Positions 1 to 17,321 of a DNA stretch of 64,000 bases are shown one piece after another. Positions within the stretch are counted from its first letter, which is position 1; each line of letters starts with the position of its first letter. The position numbers and the translations under genes were made by a program. The notes below the pieces were generated by a model. The model did no database searches. It was not told the DNA's origin and was given only the letters and a program-made list of their open reading frames with translations. The DNA is from an uncultured Gammaproteobacteria bacterium. Lineage in GTDB: Bacteria; Patescibacteriota; Microgenomatia; UBA12405. The stretch spans positions 49,577 through 113,576 of the forward strand of contig CAYUZS010000002.1 of NCBI GenBank assembly GCA_964448705.1, given 5' to 3'.

Positions 1-691
1 CTTTACCGGTAAGATGGCCTGAAGTTAGGGCTAAAATAATCTGATCCGAATGATATGAAGAATTCTGGGGGTCGACCAGAGATTCAAAACGCTGTCGGCG
101 ATAGGGAGAAGTTAAAACCAAAATTAAACTGGCAGAAATGGCAAAAAGACATAGGACAAAAAGGGAAACAATTTCACCACCGGAGAGATAATACATGGTA
201 ATTACGGTGGCAGCAATTAAAATAGAAGTGCTTAAATTCGGTTCCAGAATGATTAACACCAGAGGAATGCCAAGATAGATGATTAAGTTTTTAATGTTGC
301 GGGAACGATCGTCAATAAATATTTTGGAAAAAAAGATAATTGCGGTCAGTTTGAATATTTCCGAAGGCTGGATGCCAAAAAAGCCGACATCAAACCAGCG
401 GCGGGCGCCGAGGACCTGATTTCCGAATTGAGGAATCAAAACGAGAATTAATAAACCTAAAGTAAGAAAATAAAATGTCTGAGAATATTTTTTAAGAAAA
501 CTAAATTTAATTTTAGCGGCGACAAAAAAAGCCGCGATGCCGACAACGGACCAAATCAATTGTTTTTTAATAAAATATAATTTGTCTCCGGCAGTGTAGA
601 CGGCTTCGGAAATAGAAGAAAGAGAAATGAAGAGCAGTCCAATCATGAGCAATAGTCCGGTAAGAAAGATCAAATTGGAATGTTTTTTCAT
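1..691 (-). CDS. ftsW: Cell-division lipid II flippase/glycosyltransferase FtsW/RodA (SEDS family), N-terminal part; the 3' end runs off the window
   Basis: Minus-strand ORF with ATG at 689-691 overlapping the stop of the upstream ATP-grasp gene (ATGA). Translation MKKHSNLIFLTGLLLMIG...GARRWFDVGFFGIQPSEIFKL... is polytopic and carries the SEDS G-x-R-R-W...QPSE signature. Not in the ORF track because no stop lies inside the window. Confidence 0.8.
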   Translation of the reverse strand, partial: MKKHSNLIFLTGLLLMIGLLFISLSSISEAVYTAGDKLYFIKKQLIWSVVGIAAFFVAAKIKFSFLKKYSQTFYFLTLGLLILVLIPQFGNQVLGARRWFDVGFFGIQPSEIFKLTAIIFFSKIFIDDRSRNIKNLIIYLGIPLVLIILEPNLSTSILIAATVITMYYLSGGEIVSLFVLCLFAISASLILVLTSPYRRQRFESLVDPQNSSYHSDQIILALTSGHLTGK

Positions 692-1797
692 AAAACGTTA
701 GCAATAACAGCGGGACTGATGGAAACAGGATCGGCAGAAGGAGAGAAGGTGGAAAACTGATGATATTTTTTTATGGTGACACCATTTGCATCTTTACGGG
801 TGATTTCCGAACCAATGAGTTGTGGATCGGTTGATCTGGAAACACCGGAGATATCGGTCGGTAAATTACAAAATTCAGACAGGTGGTAATAAAATAAAGG
901 GGTATAACCGGCATTTTTTTCTATTTCGGTATAAAAGGCAAAAGAGGCAGTAAGACGGGCGTTACATTCCAGAAGATAAACTTTGTCTTCCGAAACTAAA
1001 AAGTCTAAACCGAAAAAACCACGGAAATGTTGGGTTTTAAGGTATTCGGAAAAAGATTCAGTTAAGGCGTTGATCTGAGAAATAATTTCGGCGGGGGCCT
1101 GCGAGGGCCATTGACGGCCGACAGTAGCTAGAGGGTTGTCGGTTAATTGGGAAAGACCGGTATATTGAAGTCCAGGAGGACTGGTGATTAATCCCCTGCC
1201 GGTTAAACAGCAATTATTTATGAGTGAATAACCCGGTAAATATTTGGAAAATTTTACAATAGTACCGGGAGCGATTAACGACTGAACATCGGAAAAATCA
1301 TTTGAAAGATGGGAACTGTTTCCGGCCCAGCCGAAATGGGTTTGGATAACCAGAGGGGAGCCGAAATCCGCCATTGCCCGAGAGTAGTTTTCCTGATTGA
1401 AAGAAATAACTAAGTTAGGGATTTGGGGAAAATTTTGCTGATGACAAATTTCGACAAATTTTATTTTATCTTCGAGATAACGATTGAGAGAAGCGGGATT
1501 AGAAATTAATAGCCAATTGTTTTGAGTACAAAGGTGTTCAATTCTGGCTGAGGGTTTGAAAGGGATTATTGCCGGTTGACGACCGGTTGATTGCGAATGC
1601 TGTTTAATAAATTCAATTGTTTTTGGGTGGGAGAGCAATCTTCCGGAATTTTTTTCCGGCAAACTGATTCCAATTTTTTCCGGAGAAATAGAAATGAAAT
1701 TACTTATTTCCGGAAGACTGATATCAAGAAATTGATCGACGACCAAAAAATAAAAATCATAAGGAGCAAGATTGAGGGTTTCCAGAAGTGAGGTCAT
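688..1797 (-). CDS. ATP-grasp family ligase (RimK/LysX/Ddl-like amino-acid ligase), substrate unknown
   Basis: C-terminal ATP-grasp signature GFFGLDFLVSEDKVYLLECNARLTASF (compare Ddl [25 protein letters not shown] and the RimK LEVNSSPG block). The N-terminal ~90 aa does not look like the Ddl N-domain (no GGxSxE). Confidence 0.6.
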   Translation of the reverse strand: MTSLLETLNLAPYDFYFLVVDQFLDISLPEISNFISISPEKIGISLPEKNSGRLLSHPKTIEFIKQHSQSTGRQPAIIPFKPSARIEHLCTQNNWLLISNPASLNRYLEDKIKFVEICHQQNFPQIPNLVISFNQENYSRAMADFGSPLVIQTHFGWAGNSSHLSNDFSDVQSLIAPGTIVKFSKYLPGYSLINNCCLTGRGLITSPPGLQYTGLSQLTDNPLATVGRQWPSQAPAEIISQINALTESFSEYLKTQHFRGFFGLDFLVSEDKVYLLECNARLTASFAFYTEIEKNAGYTPLFYYHLSEFCNLPTDISGVSRSTDPQLIGSEITRKDANGVTIKKYHQFSTFSPSADPVSISPAVIANVL

Positions 1798-2600
1798 CTT
1801 TTGGTTCCGGTTAATAAAATAAGCGGATAAAGACCAGGATCATATTTTTCGAGGGCTTTTTTATATCCGGCAAAAGCCATAACACCTTCGGGAGAAGTAG
1901 AAAGATTATTAATATCAAAAAAGGCCGAAGCATCTTCAATTTGATGATTGTTGATAACAATACCTGAACCGGAGGAATTTTTGATGGCAGTAATAACTTG
2001 GGATTTTAAGGGAAGGAGTTTAACGGTTAAAGAATCGGTTAATGATTCTTTTTCCGGTTGATAATTTTGGTCGAAGAAGGAAGCGATGGGACAATTATTT
2101 GCCGGCTGAACTGCAAATATTTTAACTGAATCGGCCAGTTTTTGAGAAATACCCAAGAGGGTGGTGCCGCTACCCACCGGTATAAAAATACTGGTAACTT
2201 GAGGAAGTTGGGCCATTATTTCCGAGCCGATTTCCTGATAGCCGATTAAGGCGGCAGGATCTGTTGATTGACGTAAGAGATAACTTTGATTGGTTTTGGA
2301 AAAGCGAAAAGCTTCGGAGATCGGTTTGGGAGTGGTAAAAATTTTAGAATGTTTGATCAGAGCCAATTTTTGGGGATTAATTCCCGGAGAGACGAAGACA
2401 GTTAAAGGGATATTTTTTTGATGACAAAAATAATCTGCAGAAATAGCGGCGTTACCAGTGCTGGAAATGACGGCTGAAGAATAATTGAGTTTTTGTAACC
2501 GGTCAAGTTGGGCAGCAATTGCCCTATCTTTGGCAGAACCGGTTAGGTTTTGATCTTCTCTTTTAAAATAGACTGAATCAAATTTGACTATGGGTGTCAT
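1794..2600 (-). CDS. PLP-dependent enzyme, fold type II (tryptophan-synthase-beta superfamily; threonine synthase / cysteine synthase / serine racemase-like), short form (268 aa)
   Basis: TGSAKDRAIAAQL PLP-lysine motif (compare TGSFKDR of ThrC and relatives). Gly-rich VGSGTT loop later in the protein. 4-nt overlap with the downstream ATP-grasp gene. Confidence 0.6.
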   Translation of the reverse strand: MTPIVKFDSVYFKREDQNLTGSAKDRAIAAQLDRLQKLNYSSAVISSTGNAAISADYFCHQKNIPLTVFVSPGINPQKLALIKHSKIFTTPKPISEAFRFSKTNQSYLLRQSTDPAALIGYQEIGSEIMAQLPQVTSIFIPVGSGTTLLGISQKLADSVKIFAVQPANNCPIASFFDQNYQPEKESLTDSLTVKLLPLKSQVITAIKNSSGSGIVINNHQIEDASAFFDINNLSTSPEGVMAFAGYKKALEKYDPGLYPLILLTGTKR

Positions 2601-2638
2601 ATAATAGTATAAGGATTATATATTTATTTGGAATCAAA

Positions 2639-2806
2639 ATGAATCTAGAAGAAAATAAAATCATCTGTCCTGATTGTCAGGCGGAAATAATTAAACCTGA
2701 AACAATGGCAGTAGGCGACATTCTGGAATGCGCTGAGTGCGGTACTGAAGTGGAAATATTGTCTTTGGAACCTATTAAATACAAAGAGTTGGTTGAAGAA
2801 AAATAA
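2639..2806 (+). CDS. LysW/ArgW-like zinc-ribbon small protein (55 aa); possible amino-group carrier protein homolog
   Basis: MNLEENKIICPDCQAEIIKPETMAVGDILECAECGTEVEILSLEPIKYKELVEEK. It has the CPxC...(17 aa)...CxxCG(T/A)E(V/L)E(I/V) spacing and the hydrophobic pattern of LysW (compare Thermus CPECGAEL...CEDCGAELEVVGLDPLRLE). The ORF exactly fills the only 207-bp gap in the operon, with TATAAT at 2600-2605 and GGA 8 nt before the ATG. Its stop lies 1 nt from the convergent NlpC/P60 stop. The GTG start at 2594 given in the ORF track overlaps the PLP gene start and is unlikely. Confidence 0.45.
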   Translation: MNLEENKIICPDCQAEIIKPETMAVGDILECAECGTEVEILSLEPIKYKELVEEK

Positions 2807-2807
2807 A

Positions 2808-3356
2808 TTATTTCTGTAAATTAAGACGATAAAATCCCTGATGTGGAAATTCGGGATTGTCAATTTCAAATTTTCCCAAAACTACTCCCCTCTTTTTTTG
2901 ATTGCTTTCCAGGTATTCAACCAGATTACCGGTTTTTTTAATGACAAACAAAACATGCCGGCCGTTATTTTGACGAACCAGATCACCGGTAGTTAAAGAG
3001 TCAGAATCAACCGGCGATGATAGAGGGTATGAGGTGAGCATGTCGGCAGAAGTTTTTCGGGGATTGAGACTGGTTTTAAAATAAAAATTTAGGAGGTGAC
3101 AAACGAGTCCGGAGCAATCGATACCGAGATGATGTTTCTTTTGGAAATTGTAAATTTGTGAAGAGGAAAAATTAATTAACTTAACATTTTCGTTGTTGGC
3201 AAATTCGATTGTCTTTAAGGCAATTTCTTTGGCAGAACCTTTTCCAACTAAAGCATTTTCCCCATTATTTTTATACTTTCCCTTATTAATGAAATAGGGA
3301 ATACCAAGATAGGTGTTGATTTCTTGAAGAAGAGAATTTAATTTAGGCCTAACCAT
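2808..3356 (-). CDS. NlpC/P60-family cysteine peptidase/amidase, no signal peptide (cytoplasmic)
   Basis: Catalytic Cys in HHLGIDCSGLVCHLL and downstream His in NGRHVLFVIK, the typical NlpC/P60 Cys-His arrangement. The most plausible start is ATG at 3354-3356 (MVRPKLNSLL), overlapping the mraY 3' end by 19 nt. The N-terminus is not hydrophobic. Confidence 0.55.
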   Translation of the reverse strand: MVRPKLNSLLQEINTYLGIPYFINKGKYKNNGENALVGKGSAKEIALKTIEFANNENVKLINFSSSQIYNFQKKHHLGIDCSGLVCHLLNFYFKTSLNPRKTSADMLTSYPLSSPVDSDSLTTGDLVRQNNGRHVLFVIKKTGNLVEYLESNQKKRGVVLGKFEIDNPEFPHQGFYRLNLQK

Positions 3357-4372
3357 AGAGCAACAACTGCTAATATAATCGCCGCCAGCCAAGCCCGAAA
3401 GACGATTTTTGGTTCTTCCCAACCGATTTTTTGAAAAGTCAGATGAAGCGGTGCTGCCGGCAAAATTTTTCTTTTAAAATAGATTTTACTGAGTATTTGG
3501 ACTGCACTACTCATACCTTCAACGATAAACGGCAGTCCGACGATAAATAAAGGGACTAATTTACCTAATAAAATAGCTATTACGGCGATAGTGGCCCCAA
3601 AAGAAAGTGAGCCGACGTCACCAAGCCAGATACGGGCCGGATAAATATTAAAGTAAAGGAAAGCAATTAAAGCCCCCAACCATAAAGCAAGAAATAGAGA
3701 AATGGGAGTGTCTAAAGAATGGTTGGACAAAAACCAAAAAGCGAATAGAGCGATCATTAATAAACCACAGGAAAGTCCATCCAAACCATCGGTAATATTG
3801 AAAAAGTTAGCAAAGCCGACGATGATGGCTGTATACAAAGGTACAGAAAACCAACCCAAATTAACCGGCCCCAAGAAGGGAATGTAGACAAAATTAATTC
3901 CTAATTGAAAGACAGCATAAATGGAAATAAACAAAGCCAAAACAATCTGAAGAATAAGTTTGTGAACCATGCGAAGACCGAAAAACCCGGTTTTTGAAAA
4001 ACCAAAAAACTTTAAAATATCGTCGTATAGTCCCAGTAAAGCAAATCCGATAAAAGTGAAAAAGATGACGATAATTTCCTGATCGATTCGGTAGTTGCTG
4101 GAGATAAAAATGTTGGAAAAATGAAGCAAGGGAAAGAGGGATAAAAACAGAACAGTTACTGTAACAATGATCAAAAGACCGCCGCCGACCGGGGTGCCTG
4201 ATTTTTGACTATGAAAACGATCAAAAATTGGGGTGCGTTTGTTTTGAAAATCGAGGGTTTTTTGATTTTGACGCTGAAATTTTAGTTTATAGAGAAGATT
4301 GATAAAAGGAACAACAAGAATGCTGTTGGTGAGAAAGGAGAATAATAGTAAACCTAGATATAAATGGATCAC
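3338..4372 (-). CDS. mraY: Phospho-N-acetylmuramoyl-pentapeptide transferase MraY
   Basis: Polytopic membrane protein with KSGTPVGGG and NITDGLDGLSCG (DGLDGL) signatures of MraY/WecA-family polyprenyl-phosphate sugar-phosphate transferases. Sits in a dcw context. Confidence 0.9.
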   Translation of the reverse strand: MIHLYLGLLLFSFLTNSILVVPFINLLYKLKFQRQNQKTLDFQNKRTPIFDRFHSQKSGTPVGGGLLIIVTVTVLFLSLFPLLHFSNIFISSNYRIDQEIIVIFFTFIGFALLGLYDDILKFFGFSKTGFFGLRMVHKLILQIVLALFISIYAVFQLGINFVYIPFLGPVNLGWFSVPLYTAIIVGFANFFNITDGLDGLSCGLLMIALFAFWFLSNHSLDTPISLFLALWLGALIAFLYFNIYPARIWLGDVGSLSFGATIAVIAILLGKLVPLFIVGLPFIVEGMSSAVQILSKIYFKRKILPAAPLHLTFQKIGWEEPKIVFRAWLAAIILAVVALWLGLN

Positions 4373-4378
4373 TTTAGA

Positions 4379-5659
4379 TTAGATTATAAACTGTTTTAAA
4401 TTATTAAGTCCATCGAGACCTCCGGAACTAAAATGAATCAAGAGATCTCCCGGCTTTAGATTAGCGGAAAGATAGGTGAAGATATCGTCTTCAATCGGTA
4501 AATATTTCATTTTTTCACCGAGAACTTTTTGCCAATTAGCAGCTGTTACCCGATCATTTTTACCTGTATTGGCGGAAAAATGAATTTTTGAAAGGATAAA
4601 TTCATGACACATATTCTTGATTTGAGAAAAATCGTTAAGACTTTTTTGATTTTGAAGAAATTTGGCATGAGGCTCGAAATAGACAAAAATCCGACGTTTT
4701 GGATAAGCTTGTTGAAGTGCGGTGAGGGCTGAATAGACCCGGGAACCGGACTGAGCAAAATCGTCATAGATTAAAATATTGTTTTTGGAAGAAATTTTTT
4801 CCAGACGTCGTTTTAATCCGGGAAAAGTAGCGATATATTTTAAAATAATAGTACTTTTTAGGCCTAATTGATGACAAAAAGTATAAGCAGCGGCAATATT
4901 TTGCTGATTATATTGACCGATAAGTTTGGATTTGAAAACTTTGTCTATTTGATAATCAAAGGTCGGGGCCTTGCTTTCAGAAATAATCTTTTTTATTTCA
5001 CTGTCCTGTCCGTTATAAACAATAAATCCGTTTTCGGGTACATTTTTAATTAATTGCCGAAAGGCTTCAAAATTTTTTTCGGAGGTGGAATAAGATTCTT
5101 TATGTTCCCATTGAGCACTGGTGAGGATTAAATATTTGACAGGATAATAGAGAAATTTTGCTTTGGTATCCAGCCCGTTGATGGATTCATCGGCTTCAAC
5201 TACAGACCAGTTTGAAGTGGTGGAATTGATGGAAGGAGAATGATTAACAAGCTGGCCGCCAAAAAAATAATTTGGATGGTAGCCGGATTTATCCATAATC
5301 CAGGAAACAAGGGCGGTGATAGTGCTTTTGCCGTATGATCCGGCGACTAAAATAGAGTTTCCCCTAATTAAACTTTTAGCGATGAATTCAGTGGCGGTGG
5401 TGTAGGGAATATTAAGTTTTTTTATTTGTTCCCATTCTTCGACACATTTAGAAAAAGACAAAAAAGATGAACCAACAATGACGGCATCAATATGGGTGTT
5501 AATAGGAGTTTTATTCAACGGAATATCGGCGATAAGTTGACTGATGGGAGGATAGATTTTATCTTGGTCTGAACCGGTGACCTCGTGACCCTGCTGTTTT
5601 AAAATCATGGCAATTTGAGCTGTCATGACTCCGGCGATACCAAGAATATGAATATGCAT
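4379..5659 (-). CDS. Mur ligase family protein, Mpl/MurC-like (UDP-N-acetylmuramate:peptide or L-Ala ligase)
   Basis: N-terminus MHIHILGIAGVMTAQIAMILKQQGHEVTGSD closely resembles the Mpl/MurC Rossmann N-domain (E. coli Mpl MRIHILGICGTFMGGLAMLARQLGHEVTGSD as recalled). P-loop VAGSYGKSTIT. 426 aa. Confidence 0.7.
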   Translation of the reverse strand: MHIHILGIAGVMTAQIAMILKQQGHEVTGSDQDKIYPPISQLIADIPLNKTPINTHIDAVIVGSSFLSFSKCVEEWEQIKKLNIPYTTATEFIAKSLIRGNSILVAGSYGKSTITALVSWIMDKSGYHPNYFFGGQLVNHSPSINSTTSNWSVVEADESINGLDTKAKFLYYPVKYLILTSAQWEHKESYSTSEKNFEAFRQLIKNVPENGFIVYNGQDSEIKKIISESKAPTFDYQIDKVFKSKLIGQYNQQNIAAAYTFCHQLGLKSTIILKYIATFPGLKRRLEKISSKNNILIYDDFAQSGSRVYSALTALQQAYPKRRIFVYFEPHAKFLQNQKSLNDFSQIKNMCHEFILSKIHFSANTGKNDRVTAANWQKVLGEKMKYLPIEDDIFTYLSANLKPGDLLIHFSSGGLDGLNNLKQFII

Positions 5660-5664
5660 ATTTA

Positions 5665-6261
5665 TCAGTGATTAATATAGGGAACCCAAGAATTATTATA
5701 ATAGTATTCAAAACCAGGAAAACTGCGTTTGTAAAATCCTAATTTAGTCTCCGGATTAAATCTGCCTAAATAAGTGTATTTTAGCTGTTGTTCGTGGGAA
5801 TCGATGACAACCTGTAATGGACAGCGAATAGGGAGATCCTGATGAGAATATTTAGGATCGTAAAATAGGTAGGCGACATGGGAAATTGTCGGGGAAAAAT
5901 AACAAACGGCATAGGCGGCGACAACATCATGGTCGTAAAAAATATAAAGTCGATTGAAGATATGGTCGGTGAAAACTTTTTTTATGGAACTGGTGGGAAA
6001 ATCCCAGTTTAATTCCTTTACCCAATCATGAATTTGTTTTTGGAGCTTTGGGGTGTAAACAAAATCGGAAAGATTAACTGTTTTGTAAGTGATGTTTTCA
6101 GTTTTTTTTAAAATACGACGATTTTCGGAATTTAAGACAAAATTTTCCAAATTAGAACGACAGCTGCTTTCCTGATAAAAAATATTCTTTTCGTTGCGTT
6201 GAGGCAAAAGACCAAGATCGTAATTTTCTTCGATAGTAAGTTCGTTTTTAATGTTAAACAT
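5665..6261 (-). CDS. Hypothetical protein with Bpt/ATE-C-like (aminoacyl-tRNA--protein transferase family, GNAT fold) motifs
   Basis: HVAYLFYDPKY and KYTYLGRFNPE resemble the two conserved blocks of bacterial Bpt / eukaryotic ATE1 C-domain (recalled as ..SAVYTFYDP.. and ..YLYLGYWI..). 198 aa. 8-nt overlap with upstream murE-like gene. Low-confidence family call. Confidence 0.35.
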   Translation of the reverse strand: MFNIKNELTIEENYDLGLLPQRNEKNIFYQESSCRSNLENFVLNSENRRILKKTENITYKTVNLSDFVYTPKLQKQIHDWVKELNWDFPTSSIKKVFTDHIFNRLYIFYDHDVVAAYAVCYFSPTISHVAYLFYDPKYSHQDLPIRCPLQVVIDSHEQQLKYTYLGRFNPETKLGFYKRSFPGFEYYYNNSWVPYINH

Positions 6262-7522
6262 GCTGTTTTCTTAATCTAAAAGCGGATCTAAAAGCTTCGG
6301 ATTCGGACCAGGGATATTCAGTTTTACCATGAAGAATGGTAGTTTCGTGACCTTTACCGCAGGCGATTATAGTATCGCCCGGAGAGGCAAGTTTAACAGC
6401 TAAATTAAAAGCATCCTGACGATTGGGAATATCGTAATAAACGAAAGATTTATTTTGGAGACGATCCGGATCTATACCTTCAATTATCTGTGAATTAATA
6501 TCTTCAACTTTTTCATTACGGGTATCATCGGCGGTAATAATAGCAATGTCAGCTATTTTTGACACCTCGTAACCCATAATCGGGCGTTTGCTTTGGTCGC
6601 GGCCGCCGGTAGCGCCGAAAATAACAATCAACTTACCTGAAGTAATCTGACGAAGTGAAGAAAGGGTGTTTTTTAAGGCATTTGGAGTGTGGGCAAAATC
6701 GACGATAGTCCGAAAACGAAAACGATTGGAGACCTCTTCCCGGCGACCTTTAATTTCCGGAAAATGACGAATAGTGTTAATTAAAATTTGGGGATCAAAT
6801 TTTAACCAATTTAAAATTCCGTAGGCAGTCAAAATATTATAAATTTGATAACGATAGTTACTGTCGGTTTTGAAAGTTAATCCATTGACCGAAAAAGAAA
6901 GAAGGTCTGATTTATCGGAAATATTTTTAGCCTGATAATCGGATTTTTTTTCGATACTATAGGTGGTAAAAGGAACTTTAAGAGCAGGACTGATTTGAGA
7001 AAAAGTAGAATCATCTTTATTTAGAACAGCATAGCGGCACTTTTTAAAAATGAGACTTTTAGTGGAAACATAGTCGTCCATATCTAAAAAATCATCAAGG
7101 TGTTCATGAGAGGTATTGGTGATAGCGGCGACTTTAAAATTACAGCCATAAAATCGAAATTGGTCCAAGGCATGAGCAGTAACTTCGATAACGACGTGAG
7201 TAACTCCCTGATCTACCATCTGACGCAGTAAAAACTGAACTTTTGAGGAATCGGGAGAAGTGGTGTGGAGACCGATAGTTGATTCCTGGGTACCGATTTT
7301 AGAGCCGACAGTACTGATGAGTCCTGCCTTAATACCGGCGTTTAGTAAACATTGGTGAATAAGAACTGAGGTGGTGGTTTTACCATCAGTTCCGGTGATA
7401 CCAATGATAATCAGTTTCCGGGAAGGAAAGCGATAATAAAAGTTATAATACAAACTTTTGGGAAAATGCCAAAGAATATTTTTTATTTTCTGTTTAACTC
7501 TTTTTAATTTACGCTTAAACAT
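6254..7522 (-). CDS. murE: Mur ligase, MurE-like (UDP-MurNAc-L-Ala-D-Glu:diamino-acid ligase family) with a truncated N-terminal domain
   Basis: P-loop IIGITGTDGKTTT and C-terminal ITADDTRNEKVEDI (MurE DNPR(S/N)E-like block). Only ~37 aa precede the P-loop, versus ~100 in canonical MurE. Position after ftsI is as in dcw clusters. Confidence 0.65.
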   Translation of the reverse strand: MFKRKLKRVKQKIKNILWHFPKSLYYNFYYRFPSRKLIIIGITGTDGKTTTSVLIHQCLLNAGIKAGLISTVGSKIGTQESTIGLHTTSPDSSKVQFLLRQMVDQGVTHVVIEVTAHALDQFRFYGCNFKVAAITNTSHEHLDDFLDMDDYVSTKSLIFKKCRYAVLNKDDSTFSQISPALKVPFTTYSIEKKSDYQAKNISDKSDLLSFSVNGLTFKTDSNYRYQIYNILTAYGILNWLKFDPQILINTIRHFPEIKGRREEVSNRFRFRTIVDFAHTPNALKNTLSSLRQITSGKLIVIFGATGGRDQSKRPIMGYEVSKIADIAIITADDTRNEKVEDINSQIIEGIDPDRLQNKSFVYYDIPNRQDAFNLAVKLASPGDTIIACGKGHETTILHGKTEYPWSESEAFRSAFRLRKQHV

Positions 7523-10916: not shown

Positions 10917-12236
10917 TTAAGAGTTTAGTTGTTGAGCAAGCCAGTTGTCAACTTCAGAAGCGGGAATACGCACCTGAGTCATAGTGTCCCGATCTCGAAT
11001 TGAAACAGTGTTGTCTTCCAGAGTTTGATAATCGACAACTAAACACCAGGGAGTTCCGATTTCGTCCTGTCGACGATATTTTTTACCGATATTACCGCTG
11101 TCATCCCAATCGAGGGAATATTTTTGAGAAAGCGACTGATAGAGCTCGTCAGCTTTGGTAACCAATTCCGGTTTGTTGGCAGCCAGTGGGAAAATAGCCA
11201 TTTTATAGGCAGAAACTTGAGGTTTAATTTGCAGCCAGGTTCGAATTTCACCATTCTCCAAAGTGTCTTCATGATAAGCATCGAGCAACATGAAGAAAAA
11301 GCTGCGATCAACTCCACCGGAGGTTTCGGTGATATGAGGTAAATATTTTTCATGAGTAACAGGATCGAGATAGGATAAATCCTGATTACTGAATTGACTG
11401 TGTTGAGTTAAATCATAATCTGAACGCCAGTGAATTCCTTCCATTTCTGACCAACCCCAGGGAGCGTTATATTCAATATCAAAAGCTTTTTTGGCGTAGA
11501 AAACGAGTTCGTCTTTTTCGTGCTGTCGAAAACGAAGGTTATCGGATTGGTTAAACATTTTTTTATACCAATTCATACGCTCTGCTTTCCAATATTCATA
11601 CCACTTGTCCATTTCTGAGGGATGAACGAAGTATTGAATATCCCATTGTTCAAATTCCCGGGTGCGGTACAAAAAGTTTTTGGGAGTTATTTCGTTTCGA
11701 AAAGCTTTTCCGATCTGAGCGATACCGAAAGGGATTTTGACACGGGAGGAATCGACTATATTTTTGAAATCAAGATAAATAGTTTGACAGGCTTCACCCC
11801 GAAGATAGGCATGCATTTTTTCGCCTTCAATGACACCAATGTCGGTTTCAAAAAGAATATTATATTTACGGCCCTCGGTGAATTCTCCATCGCATTCCGG
11901 ACATTTAGCAGCGTTGTCGATTAAATCCGGACGAAAGCGTTTATGGCACGATTTGCATTCGACCATAATATCGGCAAAGTTTTTAACATGCCCCGAAGCT
12001 TCCCAAACTCTGGGATGGGTAATTATTGAACCATCAATTAGAACTATGTCCCGACGGCGGGTAACGTTGTCGCGGATCCAAAGATTTTTCCAATTGTATT
12101 TCATCAACGCTCCGACCGGACCGTAATCATAGAAACCCTGAACACCTCCGTATATTTCACTGTTCTGAAAAATAATTCCCCGACGTTTGCAGAGAGAAAC
12201 AATTTTGGAAACGATATCGTTTTGAGTATTTGCCAT
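10917..12236 (-). CDS. glyS: Glycine--tRNA ligase (class II, homodimeric GlyRS type)
   Basis: IFQNSEIYGG...HPRVWEASGHV...FRNEITP...ETSGGVDR class-II aaRS / GlyRS motifs. 439 aa. Confidence 0.9.
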   Translation of the reverse strand: MANTQNDIVSKIVSLCKRRGIIFQNSEIYGGVQGFYDYGPVGALMKYNWKNLWIRDNVTRRRDIVLIDGSIITHPRVWEASGHVKNFADIMVECKSCHKRFRPDLIDNAAKCPECDGEFTEGRKYNILFETDIGVIEGEKMHAYLRGEACQTIYLDFKNIVDSSRVKIPFGIAQIGKAFRNEITPKNFLYRTREFEQWDIQYFVHPSEMDKWYEYWKAERMNWYKKMFNQSDNLRFRQHEKDELVFYAKKAFDIEYNAPWGWSEMEGIHWRSDYDLTQHSQFSNQDLSYLDPVTHEKYLPHITETSGGVDRSFFFMLLDAYHEDTLENGEIRTWLQIKPQVSAYKMAIFPLAANKPELVTKADELYQSLSQKYSLDWDDSGNIGKKYRRQDEIGTPWCLVVDYQTLEDNTVSIRDRDTMTQVRIPASEVDNWLAQQLNS

Positions 12237-13011: not shown

Positions 13012-13572
13012 TTATCGGAAGAGTTTGTCGCTTTGGAGCGGTTTTTCAATGATAGATTCCAAATGCCGTTTAAGAATTTTTTGAGCGGTGATATAGTCCT
13101 GCTGTTGATAGGCTTGGGTAACAGTTTCCGGTAAACCAAAACCAAGAAAATTAATAAACTCCATCTCGTACTTGATGAATTGGGATAATTGATTGAGGTT
13201 AATCGAAGTAATTAATTTTTCTGAAATTTGGTAAATGCCGGGAATATTTTGATTTTCAGCAATAAAATAATTGATTATTTCAAGAACGTAAAATAATAGG
13301 TTAAGCTGAGTTAAGGATTTTTGGTGATGAAGAAATTGAGAAACAGAAATTGATTCTGATAACCATAAAAAATCATTTTTTTGATAAAGATGAGCTTTAA
13401 TGATATTCCCCAACTGAAGTGTGCCCAGACGACTGCTTTTGATATTTTTAGCACCTTTGGCCAGAACAACAATTTTACCCAGTTCCGGAGTCAGCAGAGT
13501 AACAAAAATATCTGTTTCCCGATAAACTTTGGTTTTAACAACAATTCCGAGTGTATTTTGAAATTTTGGCAT
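13012..13572 (-). CDS. recO: DNA repair protein RecO (short form)
   Basis: N-terminal OB-fold pattern GIVVKTKVYRETDIFVTLLTPELGKIVVLAKGAKN typical of RecO. 186 aa. 1-nt overlap with upstream DUF4012 gene. Confidence 0.5.
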   Translation of the reverse strand: MPKFQNTLGIVVKTKVYRETDIFVTLLTPELGKIVVLAKGAKNIKSSRLGTLQLGNIIKAHLYQKNDFLWLSESISVSQFLHHQKSLTQLNLLFYVLEIINYFIAENQNIPGIYQISEKLITSINLNQLSQFIKYEMEFINFLGFGLPETVTQAYQQQDYITAQKILKRHLESIIEKPLQSDKLFR

Positions 13573-15530
13573 TAAAGAGAAAGTTTGACGGTTTTATCAC
13601 CAGTCCAAGTGAAACTTTCTTCAAGTTTACCATTTACCCAAAGATCATAGGGAATATCTTTAGTACCCGGTTGTTTTTGGAGCAACAAAGTATAGTTGGC
13701 ATTAGCGGGGACACTGGAAACATATTGTACAGATGTTTTGGCGCTGGATTGGGCATAAAGTGGATATTTATTTCCGTAAAATCCTTCAAAAACCTGCTTA
13801 CCAAGTTCTTCATAAACAACGGGTTCGACTTCGGAGCCAGTCATTTTTACCAGTTTTGAACCGGTGGGAACATAGAATCTAAACCAATCGCGATATTTGG
13901 GAGCATTAAGACATAGTCCGCCTGTTTCCAAATTACAGTTGCTGGCCTTAAAAGGATTAGTGTAGGTGACGGTGACTTTATGCTCTACCTGTCCGTTATT
14001 GGCGATGATTTCGTGTTTTATTTTTTGAGTGAGAAAAATATTAGTTTTAGCACTGGCGAAATTGGCATCATTAAGATGAAGATAATCAATAGAATTGTCG
14101 GTCTGGGTGATGCTGCCGGCAATACCTGCAGTGACGGCGGCTTTTTGGATTTCCGGATCAGTAAAGTAAAAAACAACGTGTTTTTTCATGATATCGTTAA
14201 ATCCGGTTTCGACCAGAGATCCGATTTTATTCTTTTCGGCACCAAGGACATTAGAAAGAATAGTGTGAATTAACGGACCAAGGAATCCTTTACGATTATT
14301 ATCGATATAGTTACGGGGCTGACCAGCCTCCCACTCTATCTGGTAAATAATTTGAGGACAACCATTACATCTTTTATCGGGATCAGCAGAAACATTTCCT
14401 AAAGTGCCGGCACCAACCCGACCTATTACTTTGAGAAGATCGACAAGAACCTGGGTGTCGATACCAATGACAGCATCAAATTTAGTTTTAGTTTTAGTAA
14501 TTTTGTAATAGGTATCCATAAAAGGTTCGATACTGGTGGGGAAATCAGGAGACAAATTCATGTCTCTAAGATTGTAGTAAGGAACATTAAGATGGTAGGC
14601 TTTTAACGGCCGGGGAGCCGGGACAGTGCTGCTGTACATAGCGTCGAGATCATAGATATTGCCGGAAGCACCGGGAGTAATCTTACCTTTATTAATAGTC
14701 ATAGTGCCATAAGCTGTCCAGAAACCACCGGTGGGACGAAGCTCAGCATCGTTTTGAAAAATCAAGAAATAGGTTCTGGGGCCATCTTTACCGAGAAACC
14801 ATGAGAGTTTAGAGAGAATCGGCTGACCGTTTTTAGTGAGTTGATGAATATCAGCGACGGTTTGTTTGGCTAAATTGATATTTGATTTAATAATCATGCC
14901 GTTAAATTCATCCGGATAACGTGATGAATCAATTTGATCAAATTCTGTTTCGATTTCGGCAAGTTTGGCTTCAATAGTACTAAGATGAGGAATAATTCCT
15001 TCCACAGATTCGGTTAAAAAGTCCAATCTATCCTGAGTAGTGGTGGCACTGTCGGTAGCAGAACCGGCTAATCCCAAGAAATCCTGATAAGGCTCGACGG
15101 CAGTAATGACAATTTGACCGGTTTCCAGACCTAGTTTTCCAATATTAACTAAATGATTACCATCAGAATAATAATCTTTTAGATAAGGTAATACCTTCAT
15201 GTAGGAAAACTTTTGATAGGACGACTGAAGTTGAGAAAGTTTTGACTGAAGATCGCTAACCTGGACTTTGGCATCTTTAAGATCTTTGTTGGCGACGGCG
15301 CTTTTAAGTTTATTGACACCTTCCTGAAGTGAAGTGGCTTGAGAGTAGATTTTTTGACCGGGAAGATAAACCAAGAAGAAACCGCTGATACCAAAAATGC
15401 CGATAATAATTAACAAAACCAAAAAGATTCTGGAAATAACTTTCAGAAACTTAGGTGTTTTTTTCTTACCACCGGTAACAGTAATTTTTTTTTCGGAGGC
15501 AGGTTTAGAAATAGACGGAACATCAATCAT
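13572..15530 (-). CDS. DUF4012-family membrane-anchored protein (cell-envelope associated, function unknown)
   Basis: N-terminal TM, long coiled-coil region, then FQNDAELRPTGGFWTAYG (DUF4012 N-x-A-E-x-R-x-x-GG motif). Confidence 0.5.
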   Translation of the reverse strand: MIDVPSISKPASEKKITVTGGKKKTPKFLKVISRIFLVLLIIIGIFGISGFFLVYLPGQKIYSQATSLQEGVNKLKSAVANKDLKDAKVQVSDLQSKLSQLQSSYQKFSYMKVLPYLKDYYSDGNHLVNIGKLGLETGQIVITAVEPYQDFLGLAGSATDSATTTQDRLDFLTESVEGIIPHLSTIEAKLAEIETEFDQIDSSRYPDEFNGMIIKSNINLAKQTVADIHQLTKNGQPILSKLSWFLGKDGPRTYFLIFQNDAELRPTGGFWTAYGTMTINKGKITPGASGNIYDLDAMYSSTVPAPRPLKAYHLNVPYYNLRDMNLSPDFPTSIEPFMDTYYKITKTKTKFDAVIGIDTQVLVDLLKVIGRVGAGTLGNVSADPDKRCNGCPQIIYQIEWEAGQPRNYIDNNRKGFLGPLIHTILSNVLGAEKNKIGSLVETGFNDIMKKHVVFYFTDPEIQKAAVTAGIAGSITQTDNSIDYLHLNDANFASAKTNIFLTQKIKHEIIANNGQVEHKVTVTYTNPFKASNCNLETGGLCLNAPKYRDWFRFYVPTGSKLVKMTGSEVEPVVYEELGKQVFEGFYGNKYPLYAQSSAKTSVQYVSSVPANANYTLLLQKQPGTKDIPYDLWVNGKLEESFTWTGDKTVKLSL

Positions 15531-15559
15531 CCTTTAAGTTTAAAGTATTTTTTTAAAAT

Positions 15560-16231
15560 TTACCAGATTGATAACATGGCTAAAGGAGTTTTTAGAAGAA
15601 TAATAATTTCCTGACGGAAAGATCGGTTCTTAATATAGTTGGCATCAAGCTCGGCTCTTTTTTCAAAGCTTAATTCATTTCTTCCGGATGTCTGCCAGAG
15701 ACCGGTGATGCCCGGTTTGGCAGTCCGAATGACATCAATATATTTTTTAGTCTGAGGATATTTGGCCTCGTATTCTTTCAATTCTTCATCACGATAAGCT
15801 CTTGGACCAACTAAACTCATCTCTCCTTTCAGAACATTTATAAATTGAGGCATTTCATCAACAGATGTGCTGCGGAGTATTTTACCGATGGCAGTGATTC
15901 TGGGATCTTCTTTCATGGGAAGTTTCCAATCAGATTTTTTGTATTTTTCCCAAAGTTCGGGATATTGTTCGCGTAATCTTTTATCGTTGTCACCGATATA
16001 CATACTACGAAATTTATACATATAAAATTCTTTTTTCTGACCGACTCTTTTTTGTTTAAAAATAACCGGTCCGGGAGAAGTGAGTTTAATAAGAATGGCA
16101 GAGATGATCAAAAAAGGAGAAAAAATGAGGAGTAAAAAGAGTGAACCAAAAATATCAATCAACCTTTTGGAGGTATCAAAAAGAAAAATTCTTTCTTTCA
16201 AAAATAATTTATCTGTTTTTTCATTGATCAT
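15560..16231 (-). CDS. Polyprenyl-phosphate hexose-1-phosphate transferase (bacterial sugar transferase, WbaP/PglC-type initiating enzyme)
   Basis: KRLIDIFGSLFLLLIFSPFLIISAILIKLTSPGPVIFKQKRVG...YKFRSM...DEMPQFINVLKGEMSLVGPR. Start moved to MINEK (16231) to avoid the 47-nt overlap with ManC. Confidence 0.8.
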   Translation of the reverse strand: MINEKTDKLFLKERIFLFDTSKRLIDIFGSLFLLLIFSPFLIISAILIKLTSPGPVIFKQKRVGQKKEFYMYKFRSMYIGDNDKRLREQYPELWEKYKKSDWKLPMKEDPRITAIGKILRSTSVDEMPQFINVLKGEMSLVGPRAYRDEELKEYEAKYPQTKKYIDVIRTAKPGITGLWQTSGRNELSFEKRAELDANYIKNRSFRQEIIILLKTPLAMLSIW

Positions 16232-17321
16232 TTTGGGATAGAAAATATTTTTTAAATTTAGAATCACTTACCATTTTGGCAACCAACTCACGAACTTTGT
16301 AACTGCCATTATAAGCAATATTGCAGACTAATAAACCATCAGGAGTGTCGATAATCGCTAAATTATTAACATCTACAAGTCCTACCAGTTTTCCTTTTGG
16401 GGCTAAAACAAGGCATTTTTTGGAATCAACTTCCAAAAATTCAGTATCCTGATTAAGAGGAATAACTTTGTCAGTTTTAATTGAAAGTTGACGATAGATA
16501 GATTTCCATTCGCCGACATCATTCCAGACAAAATCAGCGGCCAGCATAACAATATTTTTAGACTTTTCAGAGATGGCTATATCAAGGGGTAAACTTGGTG
16601 ATAATGAATAAATATGGGGAATGTCTTTGGGAGAGGATATTATTTTTTGATATAAGTCATAGTATTTTGGTGAACAGGATTTGAATTCCGAGAGAATAGT
16701 CTGAACATTAAAGGTGTAGATTCCCGAATTCCAATAACTTTTTCCGGAGCGAATTAATTTTTCAGCCGTGGCCAGCGGTGGTTTTTCGATGAAATTTTTG
16801 ACGGTATAAATCCCCTGTTGTTGATGACCGACTAAAATATAACCAAAAGAAACACTGGGTGAATTTGGGACAATTCCTAAGGTAACAACAATCGGTTTAC
16901 CGGCGGCAATAAGAGCGGATTTTTTTATCTGTTTAACGAAAACAGGTAAGTTGCCAATATAGTGATCGGAAGTAAAGGAGGAAATGACGGCCTGAGGATT
17001 TATCTGAGAAATAATAGAAGAGGCATAAAGAATGGCCATGGCGGTGTTCTTTTTATCGGGTTCGGAAATAAGATTATGTTCGGAAAGTAGACCTTTTAAA
17101 TGGCTTTTAATGAGGTGATTATATTTTTGGTGGCTGATGACAAAAATGTGGTCTCTGGGAACTATTTTTTGAGCTCTTAAAAAAGTTTCTCTAAGAAAAG
17201 AATCTTTGGAAAGAATGGATAAAAATTGTTTCGGATGACCGGACCTGGATAGTGGCCAGAGCCGTGGACCGCTGCCCCCGCAAAGAATTAAAATATAATG
17301 ATTATTTACTGTTCCCGACAT
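16221..17321 (-). CDS. manC: Mannose-1-phosphate guanylyltransferase-like sugar nucleotidyltransferase
   Basis: ILCGGSGPRLWPLSRSGHPKQFL nucleotidyltransferase signature. 366 aa. Confidence 0.7.
   Translation of the reverse strand: MSGTVNNHYILILCGGSGPRLWPLSRSGHPKQFLSILSKDSFLRETFLRAQKIVPRDHIFVISHQKYNHLIKSHLKGLLSEHNLISEPDKKNTAMAILYASSIISQINPQAVISSFTSDHYIGNLPVFVKQIKKSALIAAGKPIVVTLGIVPNSPSVSFGYILVGHQQQGIYTVKNFIEKPPLATAEKLIRSGKSYWNSGIYTFNVQTILSEFKSCSPKYYDLYQKIISSPKDIPHIYSLSPSLPLDIAISEKSKNIVMLAADFVWNDVGEWKSIYRQLSIKTDKVIPLNQDTEFLEVDSKKCLVLAPKGKLVGLVDVNNLAIIDTPDGLLVCNIAYNGSYKVRELVAKMVSDSKFKKYFLSQNDQ

Follow-up and report, generated by a model that had tools for sequence, protein, structure and literature searches.

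Organization of the locus

The window, which is the whole stretch of 64,000 nucleotides analysed here, carries a 198-amino-acid open reading frame, called X throughout, between a MurE-like gene and a second Mur ligase gene. X and the genes around it are as follows.

1 to ~690, minus strand: N-terminus of FtsW, directly after the ATP-grasp ligase gene and running off the start of the window
688 to 1797, minus strand: ATP-grasp ligase of the module; Pfam ATP-grasp families just below threshold, weak RimK/LysX matches
1794 to 2600, minus strand: PALP fold-type-II PLP enzyme (threonine-synthase/SbnA-like); Pfam PALP, 126.8 bits
2639 to 2806, plus strand (opposite to its neighbors): LysW-like zinc-ribbon protein, 55 aa; NCBIfam lysW, 31.6 bits, cut-off 53
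2808 to 3422, minus strand: NlpC/P60-like cytoplasmic protein; Pfam NLPC_P60, 20.3 bits, cut-off 23; carries a Cys motif ('DCSG') and, further along, a His
3338 to 4372, minus strand: MraY-type phospho-MurNAc-pentapeptide transferase; Pfam Glycos_transf_4; best NCBIfam match mraY, 158.6 bits, cut-off 192
4379 to 5659, minus strand: Mpl-type UDP-MurNAc ligase, 426 aa, partner of X; assigned from Pfam Mur_ligase domains, blastp, PDB match and loop
5665 to 6261, minus strand: X, 198 aa, Cys-less and homologous to the ATE/Bpt aminoacyl-tRNA-protein transferases; ATG start, TGA stop
6254 to 7522, minus strand: MurE-like ligase (MurE'), 422 aa, lacking the N-terminal domain of ~95 residues
10917 to 12236, minus strand: glycine--tRNA ligase (GlyRS); NCBIfam, 557 bits, cut-off 312; head of the tightly packed gene string

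The initial annotation had described X as a gene joined to its neighbors by junctions of 8 and 6 nt and therefore operonic. The start of X does overlap the stop of MurE' by 8 nt (ATGTTTAA, 6254-6261), while the gap between its stop and the ATG of the following Mur ligase gene is 5 nt (5660-5664) rather than 6. The operonic setting was confirmed: X lies in a GlyRS-RsmH-FtsL-FtsI-MurE'-X-ligase-MraY-NlpC/P60 string in which every overlap or gap is 13 nt or less. Homologues of X number 142 (identity 53-70%, ~200 aa), and the AlphaFold2 model has a mean pLDDT of 94.5. A pattern scan of species-representative genomes found 526 relatives, which are skewed towards Shapirobacteria-like sequences because the scan was seeded with alignment A1 rather than with the diverse alignment A2, which had no conserved stretch. 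The homologues, the pattern-scan relatives and the confident model show that X is a real gene and not a chance open reading frame. A scan for promoter-like and terminator-like sequences gave no meaningful enrichment, and no tRNA genes were found in a search across the window.

MurE' scored 323 bits against NCBIfam murE (TIGR01085; cut-off 257), with an alignment that began only at model positions 75-102, and its blastp match to E. coli MurE covered only residues 101-483. The short MurE', together with a short MurF' in locus L074, was considered as an X-specific sign of UDP-free peptide substrates; this reading was rejected because MurE' and MurF' are just as short in the X-less loci L093 and L097. 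Several of the other neighbors recur elsewhere. The NlpC/P60-like protein has orthologues in Parcubacteria modules, the LysW-like gene is kept in the module (Pfam Zn_ribbon_LysW in L001, L002, L085 and L092), and the ATP-grasp ligase has ATP-grasp orthologues in L085, L092 and L096. The best NCBIfam matches of the PALP gene, threonine synthase and SbnA, were all below threshold.

Family membership of X

The initial annotation had quoted two blocks from X, HVAYLFYDPKY and KYTYLGRFNPE, and had assigned it to the ATE/Bpt family. Both blocks are present in the checked translation, and the family assignment was borne out by profile searches; the accompanying proposal, Fem-like branching of the stem peptide, is retained as a serious rival reading and is weighed below. 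X scored 27.9 bits against Pfam ATE_C (PF04377; cut-off 25, E 3.8e-6, residues 74-185), a domain that is precomputed for many of its homologues, and hhalign matched a 50-sequence X family to four canonical Bpt sequences over 164 columns with 99.5% probability (E 2.4e-22). X has an ATE-type GNAT fold, and in both structure and sequence the proteins that match it best are without exception aminoacyl-tRNA transferases. The elements of X referred to here are listed below.

5728 to 5733, minus strand: Tyr177-Lys178, corresponding to the catalytic pair Tyr303-Lys304 of klAte1 (Phe304-Lys305 of FemX)
5749 to 5781, minus strand: KYTYLGRFNPE block, residues 161-171
5848 to 5880, minus strand: HVAYLFYDPKY block, residues 128-138
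5749 to 5880, minus strand: GNAT core containing both blocks, aligned with Bpt 'SAVYTFFDP' and 'YVYLGYY' (hhalign, MAFFT)
6103 to 6129, minus strand: basic helix SENRRILKK, residues 45-53, aligned with the Bpt 'SRSQ(K/R)R' helix (hhalign, MAFFT)

Searches of X with the FemAB and ATE_N profiles gave no match, and the Leu_Phe_trans (Aat) profile did not recognize it as a member. [quoted passage not shown] The hhalign match begins beyond the Bpt Cys cluster, and MAFFT places no Cys of X in the columns of Bpt C21, C65, C68 and C71. The best NCBIfam arginyltransferase score of X was 34.5 bits against an equivalog cut-off of 205, and X fell far below all such cut-offs. In contrast to Bpt and ATE1, X was found only in Patescibacteria-type genomes. 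Judged by its sequence, X belongs to the ATE/Bpt branch of the GNAT-fold aminoacyl-tRNA transferases, as a divergent, Cys-less representative.

Counterparts of catalytic, tRNA-binding and pocket residues

Tyr177-Lys178 is invariant in 50 members of the X family and is aligned with Bpt Y220-K221 by both hhalign and MAFFT; in klAte1, the K304A and Y303F variants of the equivalent pair are inactive (PMC9351520). Helix 45-53 is also predicted in the AlphaFold2 model, and among 50 diverse family members no substitution occurs at S45, E46, N47 or R49, while R48 is kept in at least 90%. From its relative position, the helix probably corresponds to the alpha3 patch of klAte1 for the tRNA acceptor stem (K112, K115, K119, R120 and K123; PMC9351520).

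In the hhalign alignment, the positions of klAte1 S255, S273, E277 and Y289 are occupied in X by V129/A130, C147, V151 and T163, and across the X family by V/A, C/L, V and T/C, the Bpt equivalents of these donor-pocket positions being taken from PMC9351520. Eukaryotic, arginyl-transferring ATE1 has an acidic Arg pocket (klAte1 Glu277) that is missing from X; Arg is therefore an unlikely donor, and X probably takes a small or neutral amino acid, for example Ala, Gly or Ser. The klAte1 motif GFRRSG, whose Arg80 recognizes the acidic N-terminal acceptor residue, is set against 'GLLPQR' in X, where MAFFT aligns R22 with the Bpt Arg only through a three-residue insertion, and R22 is not invariant across the wider family. 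In the hhalign alignment, X has no conserved counterpart of klAte1 His178.

GlyRS may supply X with aminoacyl-tRNA, and its synteny recurs in X-containing loci. As a clue to a glycyl donor, the co-operonic GlyRS was downgraded, since the X-less locus L093 has an aminoacyl-tRNA synthetase with the same two Pfam domains (tRNA-synt_2b, HGTP_anticodon) at this position.

The partner gene encodes an Mpl-type ligase

In the ligase that follows X, the Pfam Mur_ligase N and M domains scored above their cut-offs and the C domain scored 28.1 bits against a cut-off of 28.4. The protein is closer to the E. coli and P. arcticus Mpl enzymes than to MurC: blastp gave 169 bits against E. coli Mpl and 84 bits against MurC, and the top PDB match was 3hn7, the P. 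arcticus Mpl structure. It shares with the murein peptide ligase Mpl an (S/T)AFFDKRSK-type loop, 'YPPxS' in the N domain, and 'RR', 'EP' and 'S(S/N)GG' in the C domain. This loop is absent from MurC-F (PMC3060825); it was found in 85 of 85 X-linked ligases, at 10-12 residues compared with 4 in MurC. Of the MurC L-Ala-binding residues His376/Arg377/Arg380 (H. influenzae numbering), the arginines are missing, the sequence there reading 'PHAKFLQ'. NCBIfam ranked murC (202 bits, cut-off 335) above mpl (167 bits, cut-off 388.7), both below threshold; this ranking conflicts with BLAST, PDB and motifs, and the shared insertion was given the greater weight.

The peptide-binding motif of the Mpl C domain is EPRSNT, whereas the partner ligase reads EPHAKF. 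The partner ligase also occupies the MurC position of the dcw cluster, is the only MurC/Mpl-family gene seen there and is always accompanied by X, which suggests that its role is biosynthetic rather than one of recycling.

X and the ligase form an obligate pair

X adjoins a Mur ligase in 83 of the 84 loci analysed, in both gene orders and also outside the dcw cluster, and in one lineage the two are fused into a protein of 645 aa; most of these loci come from closely related Shapirobacteria and are thus not independent. Every X-linked ligase is of the Mpl type, with the Mpl-specific loop. In Parcubacteria, X and its ligase are found by themselves, at a distance from MurE and MurF.

In X-less sister lineages, of which two independent ones were compared, a MurC-type ligase and MurD(+MurI) occupy the same operon positions; the ligases of L093 and L097 read 'PHQYS-RLK' and have no Mpl loop. 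In X-containing lineages the MurD slot holds the NlpC/P60-like, LysW-like, PALP and ATP-grasp genes, the NlpC/P60-like gene being the first of them. The comparison covered ~10 kb on either side of X, and MurC or MurD could lie elsewhere in the X-containing genomes. Additional Mur ligases in the loci were sought with MurD, MurF and Ddl queries, and a divergent MurD-like ligase was found beside the module in three X-containing Parcubacteria loci (L083, L085 and L092); the proposal that X replaces MurD everywhere was rejected on this ground. Separate FemX-like open reading frames adjoin MurF in the X-containing loci L078 and L082, the assignment having been profile-tested in L082 only.

Possible roles of X

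The substrates of ATE/Bpt enzymes are N-terminal Glu and Asp residues, and Bpt ordinarily leucylates such termini for ClpS-ClpAP. That X is an N-degron enzyme of this kind, placed in the dcw operon by chance, is very improbable, even though it is homologous to Bpt and some of its homologues are labelled arginyl-tRNA--protein transferase by JGI. Its arginyltransferase score is far too low and it has no Cys clusters; its genomic partner is a Mur ligase instead of N-degron machinery, and adjacency or fusion to that ligase persists across very divergent lineages, whichever of the two genes comes first. Between sister lineages, X and MurC/MurD also take each other's place. It is improbable, though less so, that X has become a tRNA-free GNAT-fold protein that either N-acylates a precursor amine with acyl-CoA as donor or, without catalysing anything itself, binds substrate as a subunit of the Mpl-type ligase. 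Its best matches being exclusively aminoacyl-tRNA transferases speaks against both forms, as does the invariance of the Tyr-Lys pair specific to those enzymes and of the basic helix; the strong purifying selection on these elements argues against a non-catalytic X in particular.

Fem-like decoration, the role put forward in the initial annotation, would have X act after the ligase, moving a residue from aminoacyl-tRNA onto the side-chain amine of residue 3 (Lys/DAP) of UDP-MurNAc-peptide or lipid II to give a branched stem or cross-bridge. This is rather unlikely. Fem enzymes have a two-domain architecture; X is a single compact ATE-type unit of 198 aa that differs from FemX, FemA, FemB and MurM in giving no FemAB match and in coexisting with FemX-like genes by MurF in L078 and L082. 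The enzymes most closely related to it, ATE and Bpt, modify alpha-amino termini, and the Parcubacteria pair lies apart from MurE and MurF. X is coupled to a first-step ligase and not, as FemABX are, to finished pentapeptide precursors. Decoration would also leave unexplained why the partner is always of the Mpl type and why, in X-containing lineages, other genes take the operon positions of MurC and MurD(+MurI). MprF and other aminoacyl-phosphatidylglycerol synthases, and the Sbb17-type aminoacyl-tRNA-dependent peptide synthases, act on lipid head groups and antibiotic scaffolds; X has no sequence relationship to them, no membrane domain and a different genomic context.

The reading we tentatively prefer, at somewhat less than an even chance, is that Patescibacteria have put X to use in making peptidoglycan precursors, in obligate partnership with an Mpl-type UDP-MurNAc:peptide ligase, and that the pair stands in for MurC and possibly MurD. 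In such a pathway, X would bind aminoacyl-tRNA through R48, R49, K52 and K53 of the basic helix, and Tyr177-Lys178 would serve to attach the aminoacyl group to a stem-peptide fragment at its free alpha-amino group. Given the preference of ATE/Bpt enzymes for N-terminal Glu or Asp, the most economical acceptor would be D-Glu or a gamma-D-Glu peptide, with a product such as L-Ala-D-Glu. The adjacent or fused ligase would then join this peptide, by its new N-terminus, to UDP-MurNAc, and the resulting UDP-MurNAc-dipeptide would be extended by the co-encoded MurE-like ligase. Loading of an X-made peptide by the Mpl-type ligase would let the pair replace MurC, and possibly MurD, in X-containing lineages, in which case MurC and MurD may have been lost genome-wide. 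The order in which X precedes the ligase is presumed here; the reverse, with X decorating the ligase product, is chemically equally possible. Points that weigh against the preferred reading are the missing Cys/Zn module, the lack of a conserved His178 counterpart, the ambiguous match to klAte1 Arg80, the NCBIfam ranking of murC above mpl for the ligase, and the MurD-like ligase of L083, L085 and L092.

A broader and more specific version of the preferred reading is possible but doubtful. In it, a large block of Patescibacteria would not have MurC and MurD attach stem residues 1 and 2 singly to UDP-MurNAc but would join the two beforehand, a Bpt/ATE-type enzyme using aminoacyl-tRNA and a free acceptor (for example, Ala-tRNA and D-Glu to give L-Ala-D-Glu), after which the Mpl-type ligase would load UDP-MurNAc; the NlpC/P60-like, LysW-like, PALP and ATP-grasp proteins would supply or salvage the acceptor.

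Implications

The order MurC-MurD-MurE-MurF belongs to a drug-target pathway and, to our knowledge, is treated as universal in wall-bearing bacteria; the only tRNA-dependent steps that we know of serve side-chain bridges (Fem/MurM). These observations suggest that the X-ligase pair is an undescribed tRNA-dependent route to cell-wall peptide, and a literature search, within the library covered, found no paper on the pairing of X with an Mpl-type ligase. If true, the broader version of the preferred reading would provide a tRNA-dependent, peptide-first entry into a pathway held to be universal. Either version would give the ATE/Bpt family a physiological function that is new and lies outside protein degradation. 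In hundreds of species of the candidate phyla radiation, a gene of the Bpt/ATE type is tied to one for an Mpl-type ligase, and this tie, with the alternation with MurC/MurD in sister lineages, makes a concrete case, open to test, in which the enzyme that begins the stem peptide would have been displaced by a non-orthologous one. The case is relevant to the ways in which ultra-small, auxotrophic episymbionts make or salvage their walls.

The analysis also corrects database labels. Homologues of X are at present called 'arginyltransferase', 'GNAT N-acetyltransferase' or 'hypothetical'. For the partner ligase, NCBIfam gives only sub-threshold murC and mpl scores.

Gene organization around X

The window is AT-rich (36% G+C), and its first 12 kb hold a tightly packed, minus-strand gene string in which the 198-aa ORF under study, here called X, lies between two Mur ligase genes.

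Gene string in the first 12 kb of the window
10917-12236, minus strand: GlyRS, a genuine glycine--tRNA ligase, heading the dcw gene string
between GlyRS and RsmH, minus strand: 209-aa protein with a lipoprotein-like N-terminus
upstream of the MurE-like ligase, minus strand: RsmH, an FtsL-like protein and FtsI
6254-7522, minus strand: MurE-like ligase
5665-6261, minus strand: X
4379-5659, minus strand: second Mur ligase, downstream of X
3338-4372, minus strand: MraY
within 688-3422, minus strand: NlpC/P60-like protein, PALP enzyme and ATP-grasp enzyme, after MraY
within 688-3422, opposite strand: LysW-like zinc-ribbon protein, between MraY and FtsW
1-690, minus strand: FtsW, running off the window start

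X overlaps the stop of the murE-like gene by 8 nt (ATGTTTAA), as the initial annotation stated; the gap to the next ligase was measured as 5 nt rather than the 6 nt reported there. Both motif blocks that it quoted are present in X.

Assignment and distribution of X

X is a genuine and conserved gene. An initial search gave 142 homologues, about 200 aa long and sharing 53-70% identity; the few whose source is named come from Candidatus Shapirobacteria. More distant members, at 20-40% identity, emerged from a second search that used a profile, and those with names belong to Adlerbacteria and Pacebacteria/Paceibacterota. When 1.84 billion representative proteins were searched exhaustively by profile, only 261 clusters appeared, mostly of 215-270 aa, so the family is small and confined to particular lineages. 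Scanning species-representative genomes with a pattern confirmed 526 relatives, whose labels are Shapirobacteria, Woesebacteria, Dojkabacteria, Nomurabacteria, Parcubacteria, Saccharibacteria or evidently wrong placeholder names.

Shapirobacteria-type dcw loci (L006, L008, L014, L015, L020-L023 and many others) occur in numerous MAG records that bear the title 'uncultured Gammaproteobacteria bacterium', and in some titled 'Candidatus Saccharibacteria' or 'Clostridia'; these titles are evidently placeholders or errors.

The ATE/Bpt family call, made initially from motifs, proved correct when profiles were applied. Pfam ATE_C matched X at 27.9 (gathering score 25), and hhalign agreed, aligning 50 diverse X-family sequences with four canonical Bpt sequences from the exhaustive search over 164 columns (99.5% probability, E 2.4e-22). 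ATE_C was the only model above its gathering score in the Pfam search; FemAB and Leu_Phe_trans, which had also been put forward for comparison, gave no match, nor did any other Pfam domain. Seven NCBIfam arginyltransferase models matched with E-values of about 1e-8 to 5e-3, all far under their cut-offs, in alignments beginning at model position 64-80. An AlphaFold2 model of X, built from a 26-sequence alignment, had a mean pLDDT of 94.5 and a pTM of 0.90. Within the ATE/Bpt superfamily, X is a divergent member, orthologous to neither Bpt nor ATE1.

Tyr303 and Lys304 are essential in Kluyveromyces lactis Ate1 (PMC9351520), and their aligned counterpart in X, Tyr177-Lys178, is invariant among 50 family members. 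The basic patch of Ate1 helix alpha3 (K112, K115, K119, R120 and K123) binds the tRNA acceptor stem (PMC9351520); it corresponds by position to the X helix SSENRRILKK, which by alignment matches the SRSQ(K/R)R helix of Bpt and in which S45, E46, N47 and R49 are invariant and R48 nearly so in the same 50 members. In contrast, the Cys clusters of ATE_N, which in ATE1 form a Zn finger touching the tRNA 3' end (PMC10115844), are all missing from X. The arginine pocket (S255, S273, E277 and Y289 in Ate1; A168, A185, Q189 and L201 in Bpt) reads V/A, C/L, V and T/C in X, and arginine is unlikely to be its donor because the Ate1 pocket residues are replaced. Where the acceptor-recognising Arg80 motif has GFRRSG, X has GLLPQR, a correspondence that is ambiguous. 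As modelled and aligned, X has the fold, the catalytic residues and the predicted tRNA-binding residues of aminoacyl-tRNA transferases.

The partner ligase

Against Escherichia coli K-12 proteins, the window ligase downstream of X scored 169 bits with Mpl, over its full length, and 84 bits with MurC; the partners of four other loci (L074, L078, L082 and L083) scored 167-189 and 94-125 bits, respectively. Among MurC, MurD, MurE, MurF and Mpl, the best match was Mpl for all 86 partner ligases compared, and the top PDB match of the window ligase was Psychrobacter arcticus Mpl (3hn7, 133.8 bits; MurC structures, at most 104.6). The P. arcticus structure defined a loop, (S/T)AFFDKRSK, specific to Mpl and missing in MurC-F, together with Mpl-specific C-domain residues and the L-Ala-binding His376, Arg377 and Arg380 of MurC (PMC3060825). 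The loop is present in all 85 full-length X-linked ligases (10-12 residues, compared with 4 in MurC). All sixteen X-linked ligases that were multiply aligned carry an N-domain motif of the YPPxS type and lack the MurC arginines, the window ligase reading EPHAKFLQ in that region. NCBIfam disagreed mildly, scoring the window ligase higher with murC (202 bits) than with mpl (167 bits), both well under their cut-offs; the shared insertion was given more weight, and the partner of X is an Mpl-type rather than a MurC-type ligase.

The surroundings of X were retrieved for more than 90 loci and their ORFs called anew. A ligase of this type adjoins X on the same strand in 83 of the 84 loci analysed, and the sole exception stops about 700 bp past X. 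The pair persists where all other synteny has gone, as in Dojkabacteria-like L078 and in L079, where murE is not adjacent. Five Parcubacteria loci (L084, L086, L089, L090 and L091) have the reverse order, ligase then X, the stop of one gene overlapping or almost touching the start of the next, and lie outside any dcw cluster; genes found nearby include those for a glutamate racemase (L086) and a class-IV aminotransferase (L089). Three further Parcubacteria loci (L083, L085 and L092) run ATP-grasp, NlpC/P60-like, MraY-type GT4, X, ligase, LysW-like (opposite strand) and PALP; L081 shows the first four of these genes before its contig ends. In one lineage, X and the ligase form a single 630-654-aa protein with a Pro/Ser-rich linker (cluster P0121), and since its seven members lie on nine contigs from ENA, JGI and NCBI, the fusion is not an assembly artefact. 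X is thus genetically inseparable from the Mpl-type ligase, and sometimes fused to it.

A second fusion, seen in a single 809-aa protein (P0172), joins the X domain to PPDK_N (ATP-grasp-like) and PEP-utilizers mobile domains, which hints at another ATP-dependent partner. A conserved 288-292-aa protein is encoded 5' of the ligase in L084 (7687-8565), L089 (5649-6518) and L091 (4236-5102), directly preceding it in the first two and separated from it by a glutamine-amidotransferase gene in L091. Precomputed Pfam annotation is empty for all three copies and the L089 copy has no NCBIfam match; the protein may be a further member of the X system.

Comparison of clusters with and without X

With the MurF-like protein of an X-containing locus (L074) as query, four homologues were inspected, yielding Microgenomates-type dcw clusters with X (X+) and without it (X-less). 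X-less L093, of which L094 and L095 are copies, reads GlyRS-x-MraZ-RsmH-FtsL-FtsI-MurE'-ligase-MurB-MurA-MurF'-MraY-MurD-FtsW, and X-less L097 reads, from MurE' onward, MurE'-ligase-MurB-MurA-MurF'-MraY-MurI-MurD::FtsW. The ligases of both lack the Mpl loop, carry DDYAVHPT, EPHQYS-RLK and a GAG C-terminus, and score nearly equally with E. coli MurC and Mpl; they are MurC-type. X+ L074, L096 and L098 share the order MurE'-X-Mpl'-MurB-MurA-Ddl-MurF'-MraY, after which comes an NlpC'-like gene; L074 has an additional 209-aa ORF separating X from MurE', the PALP and ATP-grasp genes come after NlpC' in L074 and L096, and FtsW is visible in L096 only. L076, L077 and L080, mapped for the query genes only, have those genes in the same order; Shapirobacteria and the window read MurE'-X-Mpl'-(MurA)-MraY-NlpC'-LysW-PALP-ATPgrasp-FtsW.

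Aligned position by position against these two independent X-less lineages, X and the Mpl-type ligase occupy the operon position of MurC, and the NlpC/P60-like, LysW-like, PALP and ATP-grasp module that of MurD(+MurI); at these positions the pair therefore replaces MurC and the four-gene module replaces MurD(+MurI). No MurD-like gene was found in the retrieved DNA (~10 kb either side of X) of 87 of 90 X+ loci, which are mostly closely related; MurC and MurD could lie elsewhere in these genomes. The remaining three, from Parcubacteria, have a divergent MurD-like gene beside the module (NCBIfam murD 131 bits, cut-off 212). MraY and the NlpC', PALP and ATP-grasp genes occur in 56 of the 90, the LysW-like ORF being too short for scoring.

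The MraY-FtsW interval holds MurD, or MurI and MurD, in X-less relatives, and the module instead in the window (688-3422); the module also occurs in L002, L085, L092 and L096. Its PLP enzyme is threonine-synthase/SbnA-like, its ATP-grasp ligase has weak LysX/RimK similarity and its NlpC/P60-like protein is cytoplasmic. With the LysW-like protein, the set looks like a pathway of the amino-group-carrier-protein type embedded in the dcw cluster. In L097, an 815-aa MurD::FtsW fusion (13097-15544) follows a gene of the glutamate racemase family (Pfam Asp_Glu_race).

Two features were set aside as support for a functional model, both occurring in X+ and X-less relatives alike. GlyRS at the operon head is kept in X+ relatives, and an aminoacyl-tRNA synthetase with the same Pfam domains holds that position in L093. 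An N-terminal domain of about 60-100 residues, present in canonical MurE and MurF, is missing from the MurE-like ligase and, in related loci, from the MurF-like ligase (window 6254-7522; L074 15453-16664; L093; L097), alignments beginning at E. coli MurE residue 101 and MurF residue 93; being common to both groups, this is a trait of the lineage and not of the X system.

Possible function of X and its partner

Mpl ligases join a peptide, via its free N-terminus, to UDP-MurNAc, and ATE/Bpt/LFTR enzymes extend an alpha-amino group by one residue, which becomes the new N-terminus, the classical acceptor being N-terminal Glu or Asp. In the simplest joint function that these chemistries suggest, X would aminoacylate a stem-peptide fragment that is free (D-Glu or a gamma-D-Glu peptide) and that the accessory module makes or salvages; the Mpl-type ligase would then attach the product to UDP-MurNAc. 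Because the MurE-like ligase is retained beside the pair and the MurD slot lacks MurD, what is loaded would be a dipeptide. This proposal is tentative, and we give it somewhat less than an even chance. Salvage input is also plausible, since Mpl enzymes accept L-Ala-D-Glu weakly (PMC3060825) and cytoplasmic YkfC-type NlpC/P60 enzymes release that dipeptide from recycled tripeptide (PMC9928106).

The initial annotation instead suggested that X decorates a precursor in the manner of Fem enzymes. If the ligase product were decorated in this way, the chemistry would be just as feasible, and the adjacency and fusion of X and the ligase would likewise be accounted for; however, it leaves the switch from MurC to Mpl and the replacement of the MurD/MurI slot unexplained, and FemX-like ORFs are encoded separately in X+ L078 and L082. 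We consider it rather unlikely. That X works without tRNA, as an acyl-CoA GNAT or a non-catalytic subunit, seems improbable, and a role as a classical N-degron Bpt very improbable indeed.

It is well established that Fem, MprF, LFTR and ATE enzymes are related in general (PMC2922099), and in full-text literature searches no paper was found that describes an ATE/Bpt homologue tied to Mur/Mpl ligases or to CPR cell-wall synthesis. We regard X as a new branch of a known superfamily of enzymes, specific to its lineage and engaged in a new functional partnership. Should the dipeptide indeed be assembled first, the textbook order of stem-peptide assembly changes for a large bacterial radiation.

Additional observations

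L075 (2679-3690) has a detectable match to no more than the C-terminal third of X (residues 126-195), abutting a shortened murE-like ORF, which reflects either a deletion across the murE 3' end and the 5' half of X or an assembly error. L082 has two MraY paralogues, at 1984-3081 and 15192-16220, one in the ATP-grasp/NlpC module and the other beside mraZ-rsmH-ftsI. L078 and L082 share a divergently oriented minus-strand trio of a FemX-like protein, a MurF-like ligase with a hydrophobic N-terminal extension and an ORF of ~250 aa that, by eye, looks like an alpha/beta-hydrolase. Elsewhere in the window, a minus-strand surface-polysaccharide cluster (13572-25360) encodes a DUF4012 protein, a Bac_transf initiating transferase, a sugar nucleotidyltransferase with a ManC-type beta-helix domain, several GT1/GT2/GT4 glycosyltransferases, a PMT-like protein and a Wzy_C-like protein (Wzy_C below cut-off).
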